Part shown: piece after piece, positions 2,639 through 11,847 of the stretch
Layout of the letters: every line of letters starts with the position of its first letter
How positions within the stretch are numbered: position 1 is the stretch's first letter
Made by a program: the position numbers and the translations under genes
Virus record (IMG/VR): IMGVR_UViG_2547132417_000005
Length of the DNA stretch: 28,860 nt
From: a virus
Lineage: Duplodnaviria; Heunggongvirae; Uroviricota; Caudoviricetes
Strand: one strand, 5' to 3'
Notes under the pieces: generated by a model
Database searches by the model: none
Told to the model about the DNA's origin: nothing
Seen by the model: only the letters and a program-made list of their open reading frames with translations

Positions 2639-3721
2639 TTAGAACTGGTAAACCATACCTACAGCAACGATATCATCGGTAGCAACGCCAGATGCTTTCG
2701 TGAAATCGCTCTTATCAATCAGGTTGATTTTGTAGTCAACAAAAGTGGACATATTTTTGTTGAAGTAATAGGTTGCACCTACATCAACATATTCAACCAG
2801 GTCCTGATCACCCCAAACACCCAAGTCTTTTCCTTTAGAATGCAGGTAAGCAACGGATGGACGCAGGCCGAAGTCGAACTGATATTGTGCAACAGCTTCG
2901 AAGTTTTGTGCTTTGTTGGCAATATGGTTATTACCAAAAACAGTCATGTTCTGGGTTTCAGAATAGGTGGTGGCCAGATAGATGTTGTTCGCATCATATT
3001 TCAGACCAGCTGCCCATACTTCAGCATTTTGACCAGAAGCATTCAGACCGTTGTTACCGTAGATAACCTGATTATTAGTGCGATCAGATTTAGCATAGGT
3101 TGCACCCACGCCGAATCCTTCATACTCATAAGTAGTTGAGAAACCGAAACCATCGCCATTAGCTTCAGTTACTTCATTTCGGTCATTTTTGCCCTGATAC
3201 TGAGCTGCAAAGTTCAGGCCATCAACCAGACCAAAGAAGTCGTTGTTACGATAAGTTGCAACACCTGTGGTGCGACCAGTCATGAATACATCTGTTTGGG
3301 TCCAGGTATCGCCACCGAATTCTGGCAGAACGTCAGTCCACGCACCGATGTCGTATGCTACACCGTAGTTACGGCCGTAATCGATTGAGCCGTAGTCACC
3401 GAATTTCAGGCCTGCAAATGCAAGACGGGTTTTGTCTTTGGAGGAACCTTGAGATTCAGCGCGGTTGCCTTTGAATTCATATTCCCACTGACCGAAACCA
3501 GTCAGTTGATCGTTGATTTGGGTTTCACCTTTGAAGCCAAGACGGGCATAAGTAGTATCACCATCATCTGCATCATTAGAGGAGAAGTAGTGCTTAGCAT
3601 TAACTTTCCCGTACAGATCCAGCTTGTTACTGTCTTTATTATAAATTTCAGCTGCCTGAGCAGACATCGCCATCAGTACTGATGCAGCTACAGCAGAAAT
3701 TGCCACTGTTAATTTTTTCAT
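2639..3721 (-). CDS. nmpC: Outer-membrane general porin, OmpC/OmpF/NmpC (Lc) family, prophage moron
   Basis: 360-aa product with signal peptide [23 protein letters not shown]|AEIYNK, porin-like sequence throughout, and C-terminal ...VGMVYQF (terminal Phe typical of beta-barrel OMPs). Sits between Q and the holin on the opposite strand, as nmpC does in DLP12. Confidence 0.9.
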
Positions 3722-4264
3722 CGTGAGCCCTTTTTTTTGAACTATTATTAAAAAATGATGTCACTGCGCGATAAATATTCATCTAATCAATGTGATTATT
3801 TCAAGATGTAAGTTTTAGTTTCTCATTTAATTTGTGAAGTAGATCTCTATTTTTATCTGAACTTTTTCTATCGAAACCTATTTATGGCTCTTATTTGAAC
3901 AAAAATAAACCTATTAGCTAATTTATATTAATGGCTGTTATTTATGGGGGTTCTATAATTCGGCAGTTTAATTTAAATCAACTAAAAATAACCTCTGAAA
4001 TTATTTATTGGTTATTTGTTGAGGTTTTCTTATGTATTTGTGGTGGTGTTTTGAACACTCGGTAGCATTCTCATAAATATCATTCAGTGGTTTACGTACG
4101 TAAAAAATTGGTTATGCTGTTAAGAGTGGTTACTTCGTCACACAGCTTAAACCCGCCGTCGAGCTGGTTTTTCCATTTTTTGAGTCTCGATATTAGCTGA
4201 TAACTCAATACCTGAGTTATTCACTGACTCCGAGTCTGTTACGTTTCTGCTTTTTTGCGATACG
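3722..4264. promoter_or_regulatory. AT-rich intergenic region: porin promoter (minus strand) and leader to the lysis genes
   Basis: About 540 bp of strongly AT-rich sequence with no credible ORF, directly upstream of the porin start. Individual promoter elements were not mapped. Confidence 0.35.
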
Positions 4265-4309
4265 TTGTATTCCCTCAATTTACACCCGCTTTGTCTGCGA
4301 GGTGGGGTT

Positions 4310-4525
4310 ATGAAATCCATGGATAAGTTAACAACGGGTGTCGCCTATGGCACCTCAGCAGGTAGTGCCGGTTACTGGTTTTTACAGCTGCTCGATAAAG
4401 TCACGCCCTCACAGTGGGCAGCAATAGGTGTGCTGGGTAGCCTGGTATTTGGCCTGCTGACGTACCTGACAAACCTTTATTTCAAGATTAAAGAAGATAA
4501 GCGCAAGGCTGCGAGAGGTGAATAA
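4310..4525 (+). CDS. essD: Class II holin (phage 21 S-type pinholin) with dual-start motif
   Basis: Product [74 protein letters not shown] codons at 4310 and 4319 (M1 and M4) give the antiholin/holin dual start. GAGGTGGGG lies upstream. Confidence 0.85.
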
Positions 4526-5022
4526 TGCCTCCATCATTACGAAAAGCCGTTGCTGCTGCTATTGGTGGCGGAGCAATTGCTATAGCATCAGTGTTAATTA
4601 CTGGCCCAAGTGGTAACGATGGTCTGGAAGGTGTCAGCTACATACCATACAAAGATATTGTTGGTGTATGGACTGTATGTCACGGGCATACAGGAAAAGA
4701 CATCATGCTCGGTAAAACGTATACCAAAGCAGAATGCAAAGCCCTCCTGAATAAAGACCTTGCCACGGTCGCCAGACAAATTAACCCGTACATCAAAGTC
4801 GATATACCGGAAACAATGCGCGGCGCTCTTTACTCATTCGTTTACAACGTGGGTGCTGGCAATTTCAGAACATCGACGCTTCTTCGCAAAATAAACCAGG
4901 GCGATATCAAAGGCGCATGTGATCAGCTACGTCGCTGGACATATGCTGGCGGTAAGCAATGGAAAGGTCTCATGACTCGTCGTGAGATTGAGCGTGAAAT
5001 CTGTTTGTGGGGTCAGCAATGA
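4525..5022 (+). CDS. rrrD: SAR endolysin (T4-lysozyme-like muramidase with N-terminal signal-anchor-release domain)
   Basis: Start overlaps the holin stop (TAATG). N-terminal Gly/Ala-rich hydrophobic segment [18 protein letters not shown] followed by a lysozyme-like domain. A pinholin paired with a SAR endolysin is the phage 21 arrangement. Confidence 0.85.
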
Positions 5023-5456
5023 ACAGAGTAACCGCGATTATCTCCGCTCTGGTTATCTGCATCATCGTCTGCCTGTCATGGGCTGTTAATCATTACCGTG
5101 ATAACGCCATGACCTACAAAGAACAGCGCGACAAAGCCACATCCATCATCGCTGACATGCAGAAGCGTCAACGTGACGTAGCAGAACTCGATGCCAGATA
5201 TACAAAGGAGCTTGCTGATGCTAACGCGACTATCGAAAGTCTCCGTGATGATGTTTCTGCTGGGCGTAAGCGGCTGCAAGTCGCCGCCTCCTGTGCAAAG
5301 TCAAAGACCGGAGCCAGCAGCATGGGCGATGGAGAAAGCCCAAGACTTACAGCAGATGCTGAACTCAATTATTACCGTCTCCGAAGTGGAATCGACAGGA
5401 TAACCGCGCAGGTTAACTACCTGCAGGAGTACATCAGGACGCAATGTCTGAAATAA
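5019..5456 (+). CDS. rzpD: Rz i-spanin
   Basis: ATG at 5019 overlaps the endolysin stop (ATGA). Product [39 protein letters not shown]... has an N-terminal TMD and coiled-coil region, lambda Rz-like. Confidence 0.8.
5218..5403 (+). CDS. rzoD: Rz1 o-spanin lipoprotein, embedded in Rz in the +1 frame
   Basis: Embedded ORF with AAGGAG 7 nt upstream of ATG 5218. Product [36 protein letters not shown]... has a lipobox-like LLGVSGC and a Pro-rich stretch. Confidence 0.6.
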
Positions 5457-5487
5457 TTTTTTTGCAAATCACAAAGTCCATTTAATG

Positions 5488-5545
5488 AGCCTCGCGATGC
5501 GGGGCTTTTTTGCAATAAATGCGTACCGCAACGCATGTTTTTTTT
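5488..5545 (+). terminator. Tandem rho-independent terminators after the lysis cassette
   Basis: Hairpin AGCCTCGC-gat-GCGGGGCT followed by TTTTTT (5488-5511), then perfect hairpin ATGCGT-accgca-ACGCAT followed by GTTTTTTTT (5519-5545). Confidence 0.55.
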
Positions 5546-5660
5546 ACACCGAACCTGCCCCTTTGGAATGGGCCTTTGAGGATACCAGTTAGTGCTGGCG
5601 AGCCTCGGTGGGCTGGTTTCCTGTGCGGCAAAGGTTCATTTCAAATGGTAGGTAAACGTT

Positions 5661-6182
5661 ATGAATATCGTGCCACTTAATTACAAAGGTGAAATTGTCA
5701 GTTTCAACACTGATGGTTGGATCAACGTCACAGGTGTTGCTGAGAGATTTGGGAAACGCATTGATAACTGGATGCGTTTGGCAGAAACGCTTGAATACGT
5801 TCGTGCTTTAGACGAAGCGTTGACCGGGAAAGAATCTCAAATTTTACATCCCTCACAATCGAGGTATGTAAAAACCAGCAAGGCACGAAAGGACAGGGGT
5901 GGTGGTACGTGGCTACATCCAAAACTTTCAGTTGCATTTGCCCGTTGGTGTGATGCTCGTTTTGCTGTGTGGTGCGACCTGCACATTGATAGTCTGCTTC
6001 GCGGTGAACTGACTGAGCAGCAGAAATATGAGCAAGCATGTCGCATTCGCGATGACCGGAAATCAAAAGCCAGCAATGGGGCAAGAGAGATGGCTCGCTG
6101 GCGATGGGATAAGCCGGTTATTGAAGCAAATGTTGAGTACTGGCGCGAGCAACTGCAGTTGACTCTCGATATCGCGTGCTGA
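5661..6182 (+). CDS. KilA-N domain protein (phage DNA-binding / antirepressor-like)
   Basis: 173-aa ORF. The motif GGTWLHPKLSVAFARWCDARFAVWC matches the KilA-N consensus as recalled. AGGT lies 7 nt upstream of the ATG. Confidence 0.7.
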   Translation: MNIVPLNYKGEIVSFNTDGWINVTGVAERFGKRIDNWMRLAETLEYVRALDEALTGKESQILHPSQSRYVKTSKARKDRGGGTWLHPKLSVAFARWCDARFAVWCDLHIDSLLRGELTEQQKYEQACRIRDDRKSKASNGAREMARWRWDKPVIEANVEYWREQLQLTLDIAC

Positions 6183-6531
6183 TGGCAAACGCAAAACTGC
6201 GTTATCGAAAAAATCAAAGCATTACTAGAACTGAGCAACGGCTATCCATTACAAAGCCCATCTACGGGTGGGCTTGATAATGGCTTATACCCTGCACGGG
6301 ATAACTTAACTGATATCCCTTTTAACGGATAAAGGCATTCAAGCCTGACACATCATGCGCTGTATCGTCGCCGTATTCCCGTATTAACAGAGACCGTAGC
6401 CCGACGGGGAACTCCTTCTGCGCGAGTGTGCGGGAATAATCAAAAACGATGCACACCGGGGTTACCGGGTACACATATTTCATCATGCCAGCGAGTCCGG
6501 TTCTGGCACGGAAGAAACCGGACGTTATGAT

Positions 6532-6942
6532 TTAGTGCGGAAATATTTGTGTAGTGTTCTGAATGTTCTCAGTAAAGAGTAATGAATTATCAAAGGTATA
6601 GTAATACCTTTTGTTTTCGTGGATATTTGTAATCCATCTGAAAACCCCTGCTGTAGCAAGATTTTTCCTGTATTCGTAAAATGATAACTCTCCTGATTTG
6701 AATCCTTTTAAGGTGGCTTCTATAAGGCATTTATTTTTTGAAAATCTTACATTTACAACCTTACCCTGTCCTTTTATTAAAACCGTATTATCGTTTTCAA
6801 GAACAAGATGAATATTCTCTGTAGCTAAATAGTAAATGTAATGTGAGACATTGTGACGTTTTAGTTCAGAATAAAACCAGTGATAGTTTAAATTATTTCG
6901 CACTTTATCGAATATTTGTTTAAAAATGGCAACCTGAGCCAT
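6532..6942 (-). CDS. ybcV: DUF1398 (YbcV)-like prophage protein
   Basis: AT-rich minus-strand ORF. Product [58 protein letters not shown]...[36 protein letters not shown] resembles the YbcV family as recalled. Start chosen at the second ATG (GGAAGG upstream); the track start at 6957 is the alternative. Confidence 0.6.
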
Positions 6943-6998
6943 TGTAGTACCTTCCATGTGATATGAGGGGCGTAGTCTGCACGATTATCTAAATTGCT

Positions 6999-7232
6999 TC
7001 AATCTGGTCTGATCTGTTTTCTGAGCAATTCAGTAATGTCACTCTTTTCTTTGTTTGCTTCAGGAGAAACTCTTTTTTCTGAGCACAGTCTCCGGCGGCA
7101 GGCTTCAATGACCCAGGCTGAGAAATTCCCGGACCCTTTTTGATCAAGAGCGATGTTAATTTGTTCAATCATTTGGTTAGGAAAGCGGATGTTGCGGATT
7201 GTTGTTCTGCGGGTTCTGTTCTTCGTTGACAT
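6999..7232 (-). CDS. ylcI: DUF3950 (YlcI)-like small protein, also the lambda right-end minus-strand ORF
   Basis: Product MSTKNRTRRTTIRNIRFPNQMIEQINIALDQKGSGNFSAWVIEACRRRL... matches the small gene just upstream of cos in lambda/DLP12 as recalled. Confidence 0.6.
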   Translation of the reverse strand: MSTKNRTRRTTIRNIRFPNQMIEQINIALDQKGSGNFSAWVIEACRRRLCSEKRVSPEANKEKSDITELLRKQIRPD

Positions 7233-7431
7233 GAGGTTGTCCCGTATTTAGTGTCGCTGATTTGTATTGTCTGAAGTTGTTTTTACGTTAAGTTGATGCA
7301 GATCAATTAATATGATACCTGCGTCATAATTGATTATTTGACGTGGTTTGATGGCGTAGATGCACGTTGTGACATGCAGATGATAATTATTATCATTTTG
7401 CGGGTCCTTTCCGGCGATCCGACAGGTTACG

Positions 7432-7443
7432 GGGCGGCGACCT
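7432..7443. other. cos: cosN cohesive-end site (12-nt GGGCGGCGACCT)
   Basis: Exact lambda junction ...GACAGGTTACG|GGGCGGCGACCTCGCGGGTTTTCGCTATTTATG..., 178 bp upstream of Nu1. cos is internal and contiguous, so the sequence is in prophage/circular form. Confidence 0.85.
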
Positions 7444-7620
7444 CGCGGGTTTTCGCTATTTATGAAAAATTTCCGGTTTAAGGCGTTTCCGTTCTTCTTC
7501 GTCATAACTTAATGTTTTTATTTAAAATACCCTCTGAAAAGAAAGGAAACGACAGGTGCTGAAAGCGAGCTTTTTGGCCTCTGTCGTTTCCTTTCTCTGT
7601 TTTTGTCCGTGGAATGAACA
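7444..7620 (+). promoter_or_regulatory. cosB region (terminase small-subunit binding elements and IHF site) between cosN and Nu1
   Basis: Position and near-identity to the lambda left end as recalled. Individual R1-R3/I1 elements were not mapped. Confidence 0.6.
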
Positions 7621-8140
7621 ATGGAAGTCAACAAAAAGCAGCTGGCTGACATTTTCGGTGCGAGTATCCGTACCATTCAGAACTGGCAGGAACAGGGAAT
7701 GCCCGTTCTGCGAGGCGGTGGCAAGGGTAATGAGGTGCTTTATGACTCTGCCGCCGTCATAAAATGGTATGCCGAAAGGGATGCTGAAATTGAGAACGAA
7801 AAGCTGCGCCGGGAGGTTGAAGAACTGCGGCAGGCCAGCGAGGCAGATCTCCAGCCAGGAACTATTGAGTACGAACGCTATCGACTTACGCGTGCGCAGG
7901 CCGACGCACAGGAACTGAAGAATGCCAGAGACTCCGCTGAAGTGGTGGAAACCGCATTCTGTACTTTCGTGTTGTCGCGGATCGCAGGTGAAATTGCCAG
8001 TATTCTCGACGGGCTCCCCCTGTCGGTGCAGCGGCGTTTTCCGGAACTGGAAAACCGACATGTTGATTTCCTGAAACGGGATATTATCAAAGCCATGAAC
8101 AAAGCAGCCGCGCTGGATGAACTGATACCGGGGTTGCTGA

Positions 8141-8166
<26 letters not shown>
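7621..8166 (+). CDS. nu1: Terminase small subunit Nu1
   Basis: 181-aa product MEVNKKQLADIFGASIRTIQNWQEQGMPVLRGGGKGNEVLYDSAAVIKWYAERDAEIENEKLRREVEEL... is near-identical to lambda gpNu1 as recalled. Confidence 0.95.

Positions 8167-11847
<3,681 letters not shown>

Follow-up and report, generated by a model that had tools for sequence, protein, structure and literature searches.

Probable two-module composition of the region between Rz and cos at the right end of a lambda-type prophage

Our analyses of the window, the whole 28,860-nucleotide stretch of viral DNA under study, indicated that the region between the lysis cassette and cos is probably a typical right end of a lambda-type E. coli prophage and consists of two modules that are independent of each other. 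Module A (5457-6243) would be a 'rha slot', in which Rz is followed by tandem terminators, a structured leader and an exchangeable gene, and module B (6532-7431) would be a Qin-type ynfO-ydfO pair transcribed against the late operon. The initial annotation had treated the three genes of this region as a single accessory cluster, but this grouping was not borne out, because the DUF1398 and YlcI/YnfO genes are not variable cargo but part of a right end that is conserved in lambda, DLP12 and Qin. The identities, the layout, the mosaic boundaries and the purifying selection are observed; the time of expression, DNA binding and any biological role are inferred. All elements of the region have been publicly annotated before, and DNA 99.9-100% identical to it carries annotation in Escherichia coli E24377A and O104:H4 and in phage ev099. 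As found, the region matters little, two of its genes being named K-12 y-genes, one with a solved structure; if either module acts in phage-phage conflict, a role would be gained for genes present in lambda and in some 40% of E. coli genomes.

Layout and mosaic boundaries of the region

An ORF check recovered the three genes as first described, and the location between the lysis cassette and cos was confirmed, with Rz ending at 5456, cosN to the right and Nu1 starting at 7621 (Table 1). Profile searches against Pfam placed all three products in catalogued families, namely KilA-N (PF04383) for the plus-strand gene and DUF1398 and DUF3950 (YlcI/YnfO) for the two minus-strand genes. A gap of 349 nt (6183-6531) with two hairpins separates the KilA-N and DUF1398 genes, as had been noted. 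No function has been established for any of the three proteins, again in agreement with the earlier description, and ynfO and ydfO were still among the uncharacterised genes in a 2024 y-ome survey. The description of the cluster as AT-rich fitted its right half only (GC content 0.311 in the DUF1398 gene, 0.436 in the YnfO-like gene and 0.402 in 7233-7431), because the KilA-N gene (0.477) and the gap (0.484) are no lower in GC than the lysis cassette (0.486); Nu1 plus A and the structural genes have values of 0.539 and 0.571, respectively.

Table 1. Features of the region between Rz and cos (positions of the window)
Feature	Position	Strand	Remarks
Intrinsic-terminator-like hairpin 1	5488-5511	+	GC-rich stem and T6, just past Rz
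Intrinsic-terminator-like hairpin 2	5519-5545	+	Stem and T8, in tandem with hairpin 1
Leader of post-Rz gene	5546-5660	+	Conserved; one long hairpin, 5553-5653
Gene for KilA-N protein with divergent, probable ORF11CD3 tail	5661-6182	+	173 aa; probably of the 'Bro network' of domain-swapping phage proteins
Strong hairpin	6246-6283	.	-24.6 kcal/mol; right mosaic joint of exchangeable cargo
Conserved non-coding core	6356-6463	.	Right flank of slot; in 422 phage records
Hairpin	6495-6523		Gap between KilA-N and DUF1398 genes
Gene for DUF1398 protein	6532-6942	-	136 aa; homologue of YdfO, YbcV and lambdap78; alternative start 6957
Gene for YlcI/YnfO (DUF3950) protein	6999-7232	-	77 aa; Qin ynfO type; basic N-terminal arm, then two helices
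Degenerate PdhR box	7002-7018	-	One half-site GGT to GAT relative to the K-12 copy, which lies between ynfO and ydfO
8-bp perfect inverted repeat, ATCAATTA-N17-TAATTGAT	7302-7334	.	70-100 bp upstream of ynfO-like start
cosN, GGGCGGCGACCT	7432-7443	+	Right-hand limit of region

Comparison with related phages revealed mosaic boundaries. Positions 5400-6282 are 98.9% identical to HK544, and lambda shares 82.5% identity over 6356-7015 and 96.5% over 7070-7700, while in PhiR49_1 only the flanks match, homology being picked up again at 6243. Between conserved flanks, different phages carry bor, Rha-like or KilA-N genes; for example, the slot is occupied by rha in P22, by gp73 in HK97 and by bor in lambda, the last as had been suggested and as our comparison with lambda confirmed. 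The domain types found in the slot elsewhere are bor, pRha-ORF11CD3, KilA-N-ORF11CD3, P22_AR_N-ORF11CD3 and KilA-N-P63C. Of the proposed moron hotspot, an exchange slot with conserved flanks was confirmed, but only about 5661-6243, some 600 bp of the region originally delimited, is exchangeable; synteny across lambdoid prophages showed the KilA-N slot to be variable but the DUF1398 and YlcI/YnfO genes to be constant in lambda, DLP12 and Qin. Morons are recognised by a promoter and terminator of their own and by presence/absence polymorphism between conserved flanks. For the KilA-N segment, conserved flanks and alternative cargo were observed and a promoter was not found; the segment has the orientation of the late operon and the same GC content as the lysis genes.

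The 108-nt non-coding core at the right flank of the slot also occurs in Stx phages with other terminases, and a search for RNA-structure signal on both of its strands gave none (z about 0). A 54-aa ORF (6322-6486, minus strand) was considered and is probably not a gene, because its reading frame is interrupted in lambda, DLP12 and Min27, by a frameshift or by a stop codon in frame; its product matched no family among the Pfam, PHROG, PADLOC and NCBIfam profiles. An Rfam scan gave nothing at gathering scores and, at relaxed thresholds, only chance miRNA matches on the cosB palindrome. The single match in an IHF consensus search (6212-6224) was at chance level, and in a paper on the prophage sRNA svsR no connection to the locus was found.

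The post-Rz slot and its KilA-N gene

Judged by sequence comparison, the KilA-N gene corresponds to P22/phi80 Rha in position and probably also in the C-terminal domain of its product, and can be seen as a KilA-N version of Rha with a common leader and a probably homologous tail. The KilA-N domain was matched with an E value of 8e-22 (77.5 bits against a Pfam cut-off of 23.8), residues 7-114 aligning to positions 4-106 of the 107 in the profile. The ORF11CD3 domain (PF10549) scored 16.2 bits in Pfam, under the cut-off of 25; with hhalign, residues 123-170 aligned to five ORF11CD3 domains encoded in the same slot at a probability of 89.6% (E 2e-6). In addition, the protein matched PHROG 129 and PHROG 518, the latter, labelled 'Rha-like', at residues 118-170 (4e-9). 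A match to Phage_pRha (PF09669) was not obtained in Pfam, and BLASTP against P22 Rha found nothing (E 7.3). The protein is 100% identical in HK544, Emek and ev099, and both the KilA-N gene and the DUF1398 gene are under purifying selection, with a dN/dS of 0.13 for the KilA-N domain.

The first of the two terminator-like hairpins past Rz is kept in HK97, SPN3UB, P22 and PhiR49_1 and is annotated as a rho-independent terminator in the HK544 record. Downstream, the leader has a predicted fold of -49.2 kcal/mol (z -3.5; none of 200 shuffles equally stable) in which its long hairpin base-pairs with the Shine-Dalgarno region. Over about 98 nt, a single base separates this leader from its counterpart in P22 rha, as read directly from the printed sequences and not as a computed identity, and blastn over a wider 264 nt gave 79.5%; it can also be aligned with PhiR49_1, SPN3UB and HK97, and a covariation analysis covered three effectively distinct sequences. 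An in-frame 19-codon uORF within the leader, from GTG (5592) to TAG (5649), is of doubtful coding status and probably non-coding, because the substitutions within it between the window and SPN3UB, counted by hand from the alignment and not as a computed statistic, are mostly non-synonymous.

No promoter was detected upstream of the KilA-N gene by a consensus scan, which is weak evidence of absence because such a scan can miss non-canonical promoters. Taken together, the late orientation, the two terminator hairpins and the lack of a detectable promoter argue against expression of the KilA-N gene from the prophage, and rha has been described as a late-operon gene (PMC4936722). We read the KilA-N protein as a Rha-type late regulator rather than the product of a lysogen-expressed gene. 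The gene would be read only by late transcription that starts at pR' and is antiterminated by Q, and the product of the slot, with a swappable N-terminal DNA-binding domain (KilA-N in this case) and an ORF11CD3-type C-terminal domain, would serve during the lytic cycle as a regulator that binds DNA or as an antirepressor-like factor, the presumed role of P22/phi80 Rha.

A more specific alternative, which we regard as unlikely, is that the KilA-N/ORF11CD3 protein is an antirepressor that inactivates the repressors of co-resident prophages, such as the Stx2 prophage of O104:H4, at induction. Bro-network proteins with a C-terminal domain of this type bear the annotation Ant or antirepressor, the Ant protein of Min27 consists of P22_AR_N and ORF11CD3, P22 rha is labelled anti-repressor, and the KilA-N allele is found in polylysogenic pathogens. 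However, these annotations rest on similarity and not on experiment, no LexA-type operator was seen by eye upstream of the gene, unlike the case of SOS-controlled antirepressors, and a late gene would act only after the phage's own induction decision.

The minus-strand gene pair next to cos

The first gene of module B would encode a small basic protein, a candidate ribbon-helix-helix DNA binder, which may autoregulate at the inverted repeat at 7302-7334, a candidate operator by inference only, and the second a soluble DUF1398 protein. The YnfO-like protein matched DUF3950 (PF13132) with an E value of 5e-21 (74.7 bits, cut-off 25) and the NCBIfam profile YlcI_YnfO_N (NF041551) with 35.7 bits (cut-off 30). 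For the ribbon-helix-helix fold (Arc/MetJ/CopG), profiles and folds were compared in search of a beta strand, a helix, a G-x-S/T turn and a second helix. This layout is fitted by the sequence pattern and by the helices of the AF2 model (19-32 and 34-54, with a break at G33; core pLDDT 84). The hhalign comparison with Arc, in the expected register, had a probability of 1.5%, and no ribbon-helix-helix profile was matched in Pfam or among PDB profiles. The YnfO-like protein may be a ribbon-helix-helix DNA binder.

The DUF1398 protein matched PF07166 over all 119 profile positions (E 3e-43, 147 bits), and use of the upstream ATG at 6957 gives a product of 141 aa, as in the YdfO construct of PDB 2HH8 (E 1e-69). 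The dN/dS of the gene is 0.14-0.35, rising to as much as 0.65 in a variable centre (residues 56-95), and the protein has no transmembrane or signal segment (maximum 19-residue hydropathy 0.39). The literature on DUF1398 is almost nil; its lambda member, lambdap78, is non-essential, CRISPRi knock-down being without effect on plaquing (PMC10695390). An internal duplication was weakly suggested by hhalign (E 0.007, probability 5%). In viral contigs, distant homologues down to 25% identity lie between Rz and the terminase, as here, or belong to prophage remnants of Salmonella, and their neighbours in these contigs include no informative functional partner. A search of genome contigs outside Escherichia/Shigella returned almost only lambda DNA contamination, some of it in contigs of about 3.5 kb that we take to be a nanopore control amplicon.

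Module B is probably expressed from the prophage, by analogy with its K-12 homologues, which are transcribed in cryptic prophages; in K-12, PdhR activates ybcV and ybcW about 10-fold, and RNA-seq shows that the convergent ybcW-ylcI transcripts overlap. The ynfO-ydfO layout is present in 2184 of 5426 complete E. coli genomes (40%). A natural YnfO-YdfO fusion of 233 aa, with 761 member sequences, suggests that the two proteins are linked functionally. The pairing is not obligatory, DUF1398 occurring without DUF3950 in all 78 viral loci and DUF3950 without DUF1398 in phage 2851 and Stx2_EH2201.

The initial annotation had pointed to this region as a plausible seat for an undescribed defence, anti-defence or superinfection-exclusion function, which we consider rather improbable for any of the three genes. 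The slot does carry lysogenic-conversion cargo (bor) in lambda, BstA abortive-infection proteins bear a KilA-N-like domain (PMC8585504), the central segment of DUF1398 evolves rapidly, and in lambda the adjacent gene, lambdap79, is involved in a defence interaction. PADLOC, proposed as a check, gave no real match, only a chance-level Csx23 hit and a 22.6-bit match (1e-5) to the candidate PDC-S22, which spans the KilA-N domain only (positions 16-130 of a 281-position model). Moreover, the protein lacks the C-terminal half of BstA and did not match the PADLOC BstA model, and its gene is oriented and insulated like a late gene, not a lysogen gene. The bstA gene reportedly sits close to the repressor and is active in lysogens. 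DUF1398 and YnfO are nearly ubiquitous and occur in lambda too, where no such phenotype is known and where knock-down of lambdap78 leaves plaquing unchanged. With no matching defence model, a late-type KilA-N gene and a conserved minus-strand pair, the siting of defence here remains a guess from position, and a new defence system in the region is unsupported.

According to a 2026 preprint, the Vulcan NADase defence system is triggered by lambdap79 (ybcW), and lambda escape mutants acquire a genotype without this gene. The gene is missing from module B, so the prophage naturally has the genotype of the Vulcan escape mutants. A bolder reading, improbable in our estimation, is that the ynfO-ydfO pair is a prophage-expressed regulator-effector module in phage-phage conflict (exclusion or counter-defence), in which YnfO would bind DNA, the variable centre of its DUF1398 partner would set specificity, and the Qin-type layout without lambdap79 would be maintained as removal of a Vulcan-type NADase trigger; alongside it, the late KilA-N/ORF11CD3 protein could possibly act on co-resident prophages.

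That ynfO-ydfO forms an addiction module of the type II toxin-antitoxin kind, with a ribbon-helix-helix antitoxin gene followed by a toxin gene, is very unlikely: the gene order, the product sizes (77 and 136 aa) and the 56-nt spacing fit, but each partner occurs alone in many phages rather than in obligate co-occurrence, an opposite-strand gene separates the pair in lambda and DLP12, the stable in-frame fusion is common, and DUF1398 is unlike any known toxin in Pfam, PADLOC and PDB profile comparisons. That DUF1398 is a virion or envelope component is scarcely credible, and the labels 'head protein' (PHROG 413) and 'putative envelope protein' in PHROGs and GenBank/RefSeq are unfounded, given a gene on the strand opposite the late operon, a product with no signal peptide or hydrophobic segment, a non-essential lambda homologue, and homologues kept in headless, tailless cryptic prophages and beside sopE2 in Salmonella.

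Relation to known systems

BstA resembles the KilA-N protein in that it is encoded by prophages and has a KilA-N(-like) DNA-binding domain at its N-terminus, but BstA has about 307 aa and a second conserved C-terminal domain (PMC8585504), whereas the protein described here has 173 aa, an ORF11CD3-type tail and a place in the late operon. The likeness to P22/phi80 Rha (P22 orf201; Phage_pRha plus ORF11CD3) extends to a slot directly past Rz, late-operon orientation, similar size and a probably homologous ORF11CD3-type C-terminal domain, together with, for P22, the leader one base apart by direct reading. The two differ in the N-terminal DNA-binding domain, which is Phage_pRha in Rha and KilA-N here, and in the C-terminal domain, which is divergent here and falls below the Pfam cut-off. 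As to phenotype, PMC4936722 cites inhibition of phage growth in IHF-deficient hosts for Rha.

The right ends of lambda (bor-lambdap78-lambdap79-ylcI-like ORF-cos) and DLP12 (borD-ybcV-ybcW-ylcI) share with module B the DUF1398 and DUF3950 genes, oriented alike and beside cos, at 82-96% nucleotide identity. They differ in that a segment of about 610 bp with ybcW/lambdap79 is missing here and, for lambda, in that the KilA-N gene stands in place of bor. The K-12 Qin ynfO-ydfO pair agrees with module B in families, gene order, lengths (234 and 411 nt), spacing and the position of the PdhR box, and the first 54 codons of ynfO have a dS of 0 and a dN of 0.016 (two amino-acid differences). In contrast, the DUF1398 allele is divergent from that of Qin ydfO (dS 0.70, about 76-78% amino-acid identity), the two ORFs are in different frames owing to a 1-nt deletion, one half-site of the PdhR box is altered, and the pair here adjoins intact cos, Nu1 and A.

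Composite structure of the region between Rz and cosN

The window is a lambda-type E. coli prophage (Table), in which synonymous divergence of Nu1 and A from lambda is merely 0.016-0.03. Positions 5400-7620 share 99.9-100% identity with E. coli E24377A, the O104:H4 outbreak lineage and other chromosomes, and phage ev099 is 100% identical over the first 2036 bases of this query (92%). Because all of it is present in public databases and annotated there ("KilA-N domain-containing protein", "DUF1398 domain-containing protein" and "YlcI/YnfO family protein"), the three-gene region is already known. The initial annotation was correct in all gene coordinates and family assignments, in the convergence of both minus-strand genes on the KilA-N gene, in the gap with hairpins (349 nt) and in regarding this as an accessory region whose functions are not established.

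Table. Features of the window
Feature	Position	Strand	Remark
Q-like gene	in window		
OmpC-like porin gene	2639-3721	-	
Holin, lysozyme, Rz/Rz1	4265-5456		
Intrinsic-terminator-like hairpin with T6	5488-5511		directly after Rz
Intrinsic-terminator-like hairpin with T8	5519-5545		directly after Rz
KilA-N gene leader	5546-5660		one long hairpin
KilA-N gene	5661-6182	+	profile match, E 8e-22
Hairpin	6246-6283		in gap
ORF of 54 aa	6322-6486	-	over conserved core
Conserved core	6356-6463		108 nt
Hairpin	6495-6523		in gap
DUF1398 gene	6532-6942	-	profile match, E 3e-43
YnfO-like gene	6999-7232	-	DUF3950, E 5e-21; NCBIfam YlcI_YnfO_N above cut-off
PdhR box	7002-7018		one half-site mutated
ORF of 85 aa	7248-7505	-	spans cosN
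cosN	7432-7443		GGGCGGCGACCT
Nu1	7621-8166		
Terminase A	8141-10066		
Lambda-like head and tail genes	in window		

The whole region had been described as AT-rich. The DUF1398 and YnfO-like genes have GC contents of 0.311 and 0.436, versus 0.54-0.57 for the packaging and structural genes, but the KilA-N gene (0.477) and the gap (0.484) resemble the lysis cassette (0.486), and AT-richness is therefore confined to the right half. Nor is the region the single cluster proposed, since comparison with lambda, HK544 and PhiR49_1 revealed sharp mosaic boundaries. Positions 5400-6282 share 98.9% identity with the HK97-like phage HK544, and the P22-like phage Emek is 98.7% identical over the part matching HK544, whereas PhiR49_1 matches only the flanks (5400-5665 and 6243 onward), between which it has a different KilA-N gene and an additional ORF. 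Identity to lambda is 82.5% over 6356-7015 and 96.5% over 7070-7700, and these segments are the right end of lambda itself. The gene order before cos in lambda and DLP12 is bor (-), the DUF1398 gene lambdap78/ybcV (-), ybcW/lambdap79 (+) and a 64-aa ylcI-like ORF (-), confirming the earlier remark on bor in lambda; the 177-aa annotation of lambdap78 is the 136-aa protein extended to an upstream GTG. Relative to lambda, ybcW/lambdap79 has been lost at a deletion or replacement point at ~7016-7069 (lambda locus L002, 3161-3773), after which synonymous divergence from lambda falls from 0.46 (DUF1398) to 0.02-0.03 (Nu1 and A). These boundaries indicate that the exchangeable cargo is limited to ~5661-6243; the suggested hotspot thus contains a genuine exchange slot, but most of it is conserved lambda right end. 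Among 5426 complete E. coli genomes, the KilA-N allele was found in 155, the ynfO-ydfO junction in 2184, ybcW in 1938 and the whole arrangement in 66.

The porin gene sits between the Q gene and the lysis cassette, like nmpC in DLP12, and is adjoined by a very AT-rich segment (3722-4264; GC 0.27-0.33) that should hold pR' and qut. Lambda right-end DNA was also present in assemblies labelled Pseudomonas, Brevibacillus, Flavobacterium, Kitasatospora and others (loci L015-L046), often as contigs of ~3.5 kb, which we take to be contamination by the nanopore lambda control amplicon and which inflate the ENA match lists for DUF1398 and DUF3950.

The post-Rz slot and its KilA-N gene

Downstream of the two terminator-like hairpins, the leader has a predicted fold of -49.2 kcal/mol (z -3.5; 0 of 200 shuffles equally stable), in which the base of the hairpin pairs with the ribosome-binding region and would occlude the ribosome-binding site. 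By direct reading, and not as a computed identity, it differs from the P22 rha leader by 1 base in ~98 nt; blastn of the window against P22 over a wider 264 nt including the Rz end gave 79.5%. The leaders of PhiR49_1, SPN3UB and HK97 gp73 can also be aligned with it. In P22 (the annotated start of orf201) and HK97, the gene is fused with an in-frame GTG...TAG uORF located in the leader. Upstream of the KilA-N gene, no sigma-70-like promoter was detected. The terminators would insulate this gene and so keep it silent in the lysogen, and its expression would probably come from Q-antiterminated late transcription.

Slot genes in other lambdoid phages are all in late-operon orientation and are domain-swap relatives: Phage_pRha + ORF11CD3 in P22 rha and Lys12581Vzw, KilA-N + ORF11CD3 in phage 2851 and PhiR49_1, KilA-N + P63C in HK97 gp73 and, between R and Rz, P22_AR_N + ORF11CD3 in Min27 Ant. 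The C-terminal 50 residues of the window's KilA-N protein scored 16.2 bits to ORF11CD3, under the Pfam threshold, but matched the slot-mates' ORF11CD3 alignment (hhalign 89.6%, E 2e-6) and PHROG 518, "Rha-like" (4e-9). Comparison with the SPN3UB allele gave a dN/dS of 0.13 for the KilA-N domain, which indicates purifying selection, and nucleotide identity over the last 56 codons, which places a recombination joint within the gene. Such domain swapping is the behaviour of the "Bro network" (PMC10111431). In a secondary source, rha is described as an IHF-regulated late-operon gene that harms phage growth in IHF-deficient hosts (PMC4936722). We infer that the window's gene is a KilA-N version of Rha, whose product may act as a DNA-binding regulator or antirepressor-like factor in lytic growth.

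At the right edge, the hairpin at 6246-6283 falls exactly on the mosaic joint. The core beyond it, with two nearly invariant blocks, is conserved across 422 phage records, among them Stx1 and Stx2 phages whose terminases are unrelated to that of lambda. It always marks the right border of the post-Rz slot, and in lambda and Min27 its position is immediately upstream of the region with the bor promoter. Neither strand gave a signal of RNA structure, and no ORF is conserved in the core, which may serve as a recombination linker or be bound by a protein. The 54-aa ORF over it had no family match and is not counted as a gene, since a stop or frameshift breaks the frame in lambda, DLP12 and Min27.

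The ynfO-ydfO pair

The minus-strand pair has the geometry of ynfO-ydfO in the K-12 Qin prophage, with genes of 234 and 411 nt separated by 56 nt. Over its first 54 codons, the YnfO-like gene differs from Qin by two amino acids (dS = 0, dN = 0.016). The DUF1398 allele is divergent (dS 0.70 versus ydfO), and its product matches YdfO (NMR structure 2HH8) with an E value of 1e-69. The DUF1398 gene has dN/dS ratios of 0.14-0.35, with conserved ends and a variable centre (residues 56-95; up to 0.65). This family is small (274 clusters at 50% identity among 1.84 billion representatives) and, in sequenced phages, occurs only in lambda-type genomes (43 records), homologues at just 25% identity still lying in the Rz-terminase interval. 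Further homologues are in Salmonella prophage remnants, where their neighbours, by eye from translations, are presumably sopE2, or IS200-, UmuD- and DinI-like ORFs. On a Salmonella viral contig (L048, 1535-3336), a homologue with 35-37% identity to the window protein lies ~700 bp from what we take by eye to be a sopE2 ORF, with a PP-lambda-like phosphatase gene nearby, which again associates this family with lysogenic-conversion cargo. DUF1398 is labelled "head protein" and "envelope protein" without foundation, because hydrophobic segments are absent from all three proteins of the region, lambdap78 is non-essential by CRISPRi and the gene runs antisense to the late operon.

The YnfO-like protein has a conserved 52-residue core (basic arm, "IRFP", helix, "GSGNFS", helix; pLDDT 84 in the AF2 model, helices 19-32 and 34-54) and looks like a ribbon-helix-helix protein, with indecisive statistical tests. 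Linkage of the pair is real, a 233-aa in-frame YnfO-YdfO fusion having 761 member sequences (proteins P0014 and P0010), but not obligatory, as DUF1398 occurred without DUF3950 in 78 of the 78 viral loci examined and phage 2851 has DUF3950 alone, adjoining HNH-terS-terL. The fusion allele is common, with the ynfO stop codon changed to Trp; the K-12 ORFs share one frame (K-12 locus L005, 5757-6458), which a 1-nt deletion breaks in the window. In K-12, transcription of the homologues occurs within cryptic prophages: ybcV and ybcW are activated ~10-fold by PdhR, a PdhR box lies between ynfO and ydfO, and RNA-seq revealed convergent, overlapping ybcW-ylcI transcripts. The 85-aa ORF ends 16 nt before the YnfO-like gene start, and over the 42 codons at its C-terminal end (7248-7376) it matches both PHROG 9395 and an annotation of 37 aa in lambda; it could be the small first gene of a minus-strand unit or a spurious call.

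Relation to known defence systems

The initial annotation was confirmed in its observation and partly supported in its interpretation, the reading as an accessory region with an exchange slot being borne out. Its proposal of a defence site was not supported: PADLOC found nothing in the region beyond a partial, domain-level KilA-N match to the candidate PDC-S22 (22.6 bits) and a Csx23 match at chance level, and there is no positive evidence for a defence function. A KilA-N-like domain is the sole feature that BstA has in common with the window's KilA-N protein. A September 2026 preprint names lambdap79 (YbcW) as the activator of the Vulcan NADase defence system and describes lambda escape mutants that delete lambdap79, probably via recombination with Qin. 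The layout here is of the Qin type, with no ybcW homologue anywhere in the window; the prophage therefore naturally carries the Vulcan escape genotype, a property of an absent gene and not a function of the three-gene cluster.
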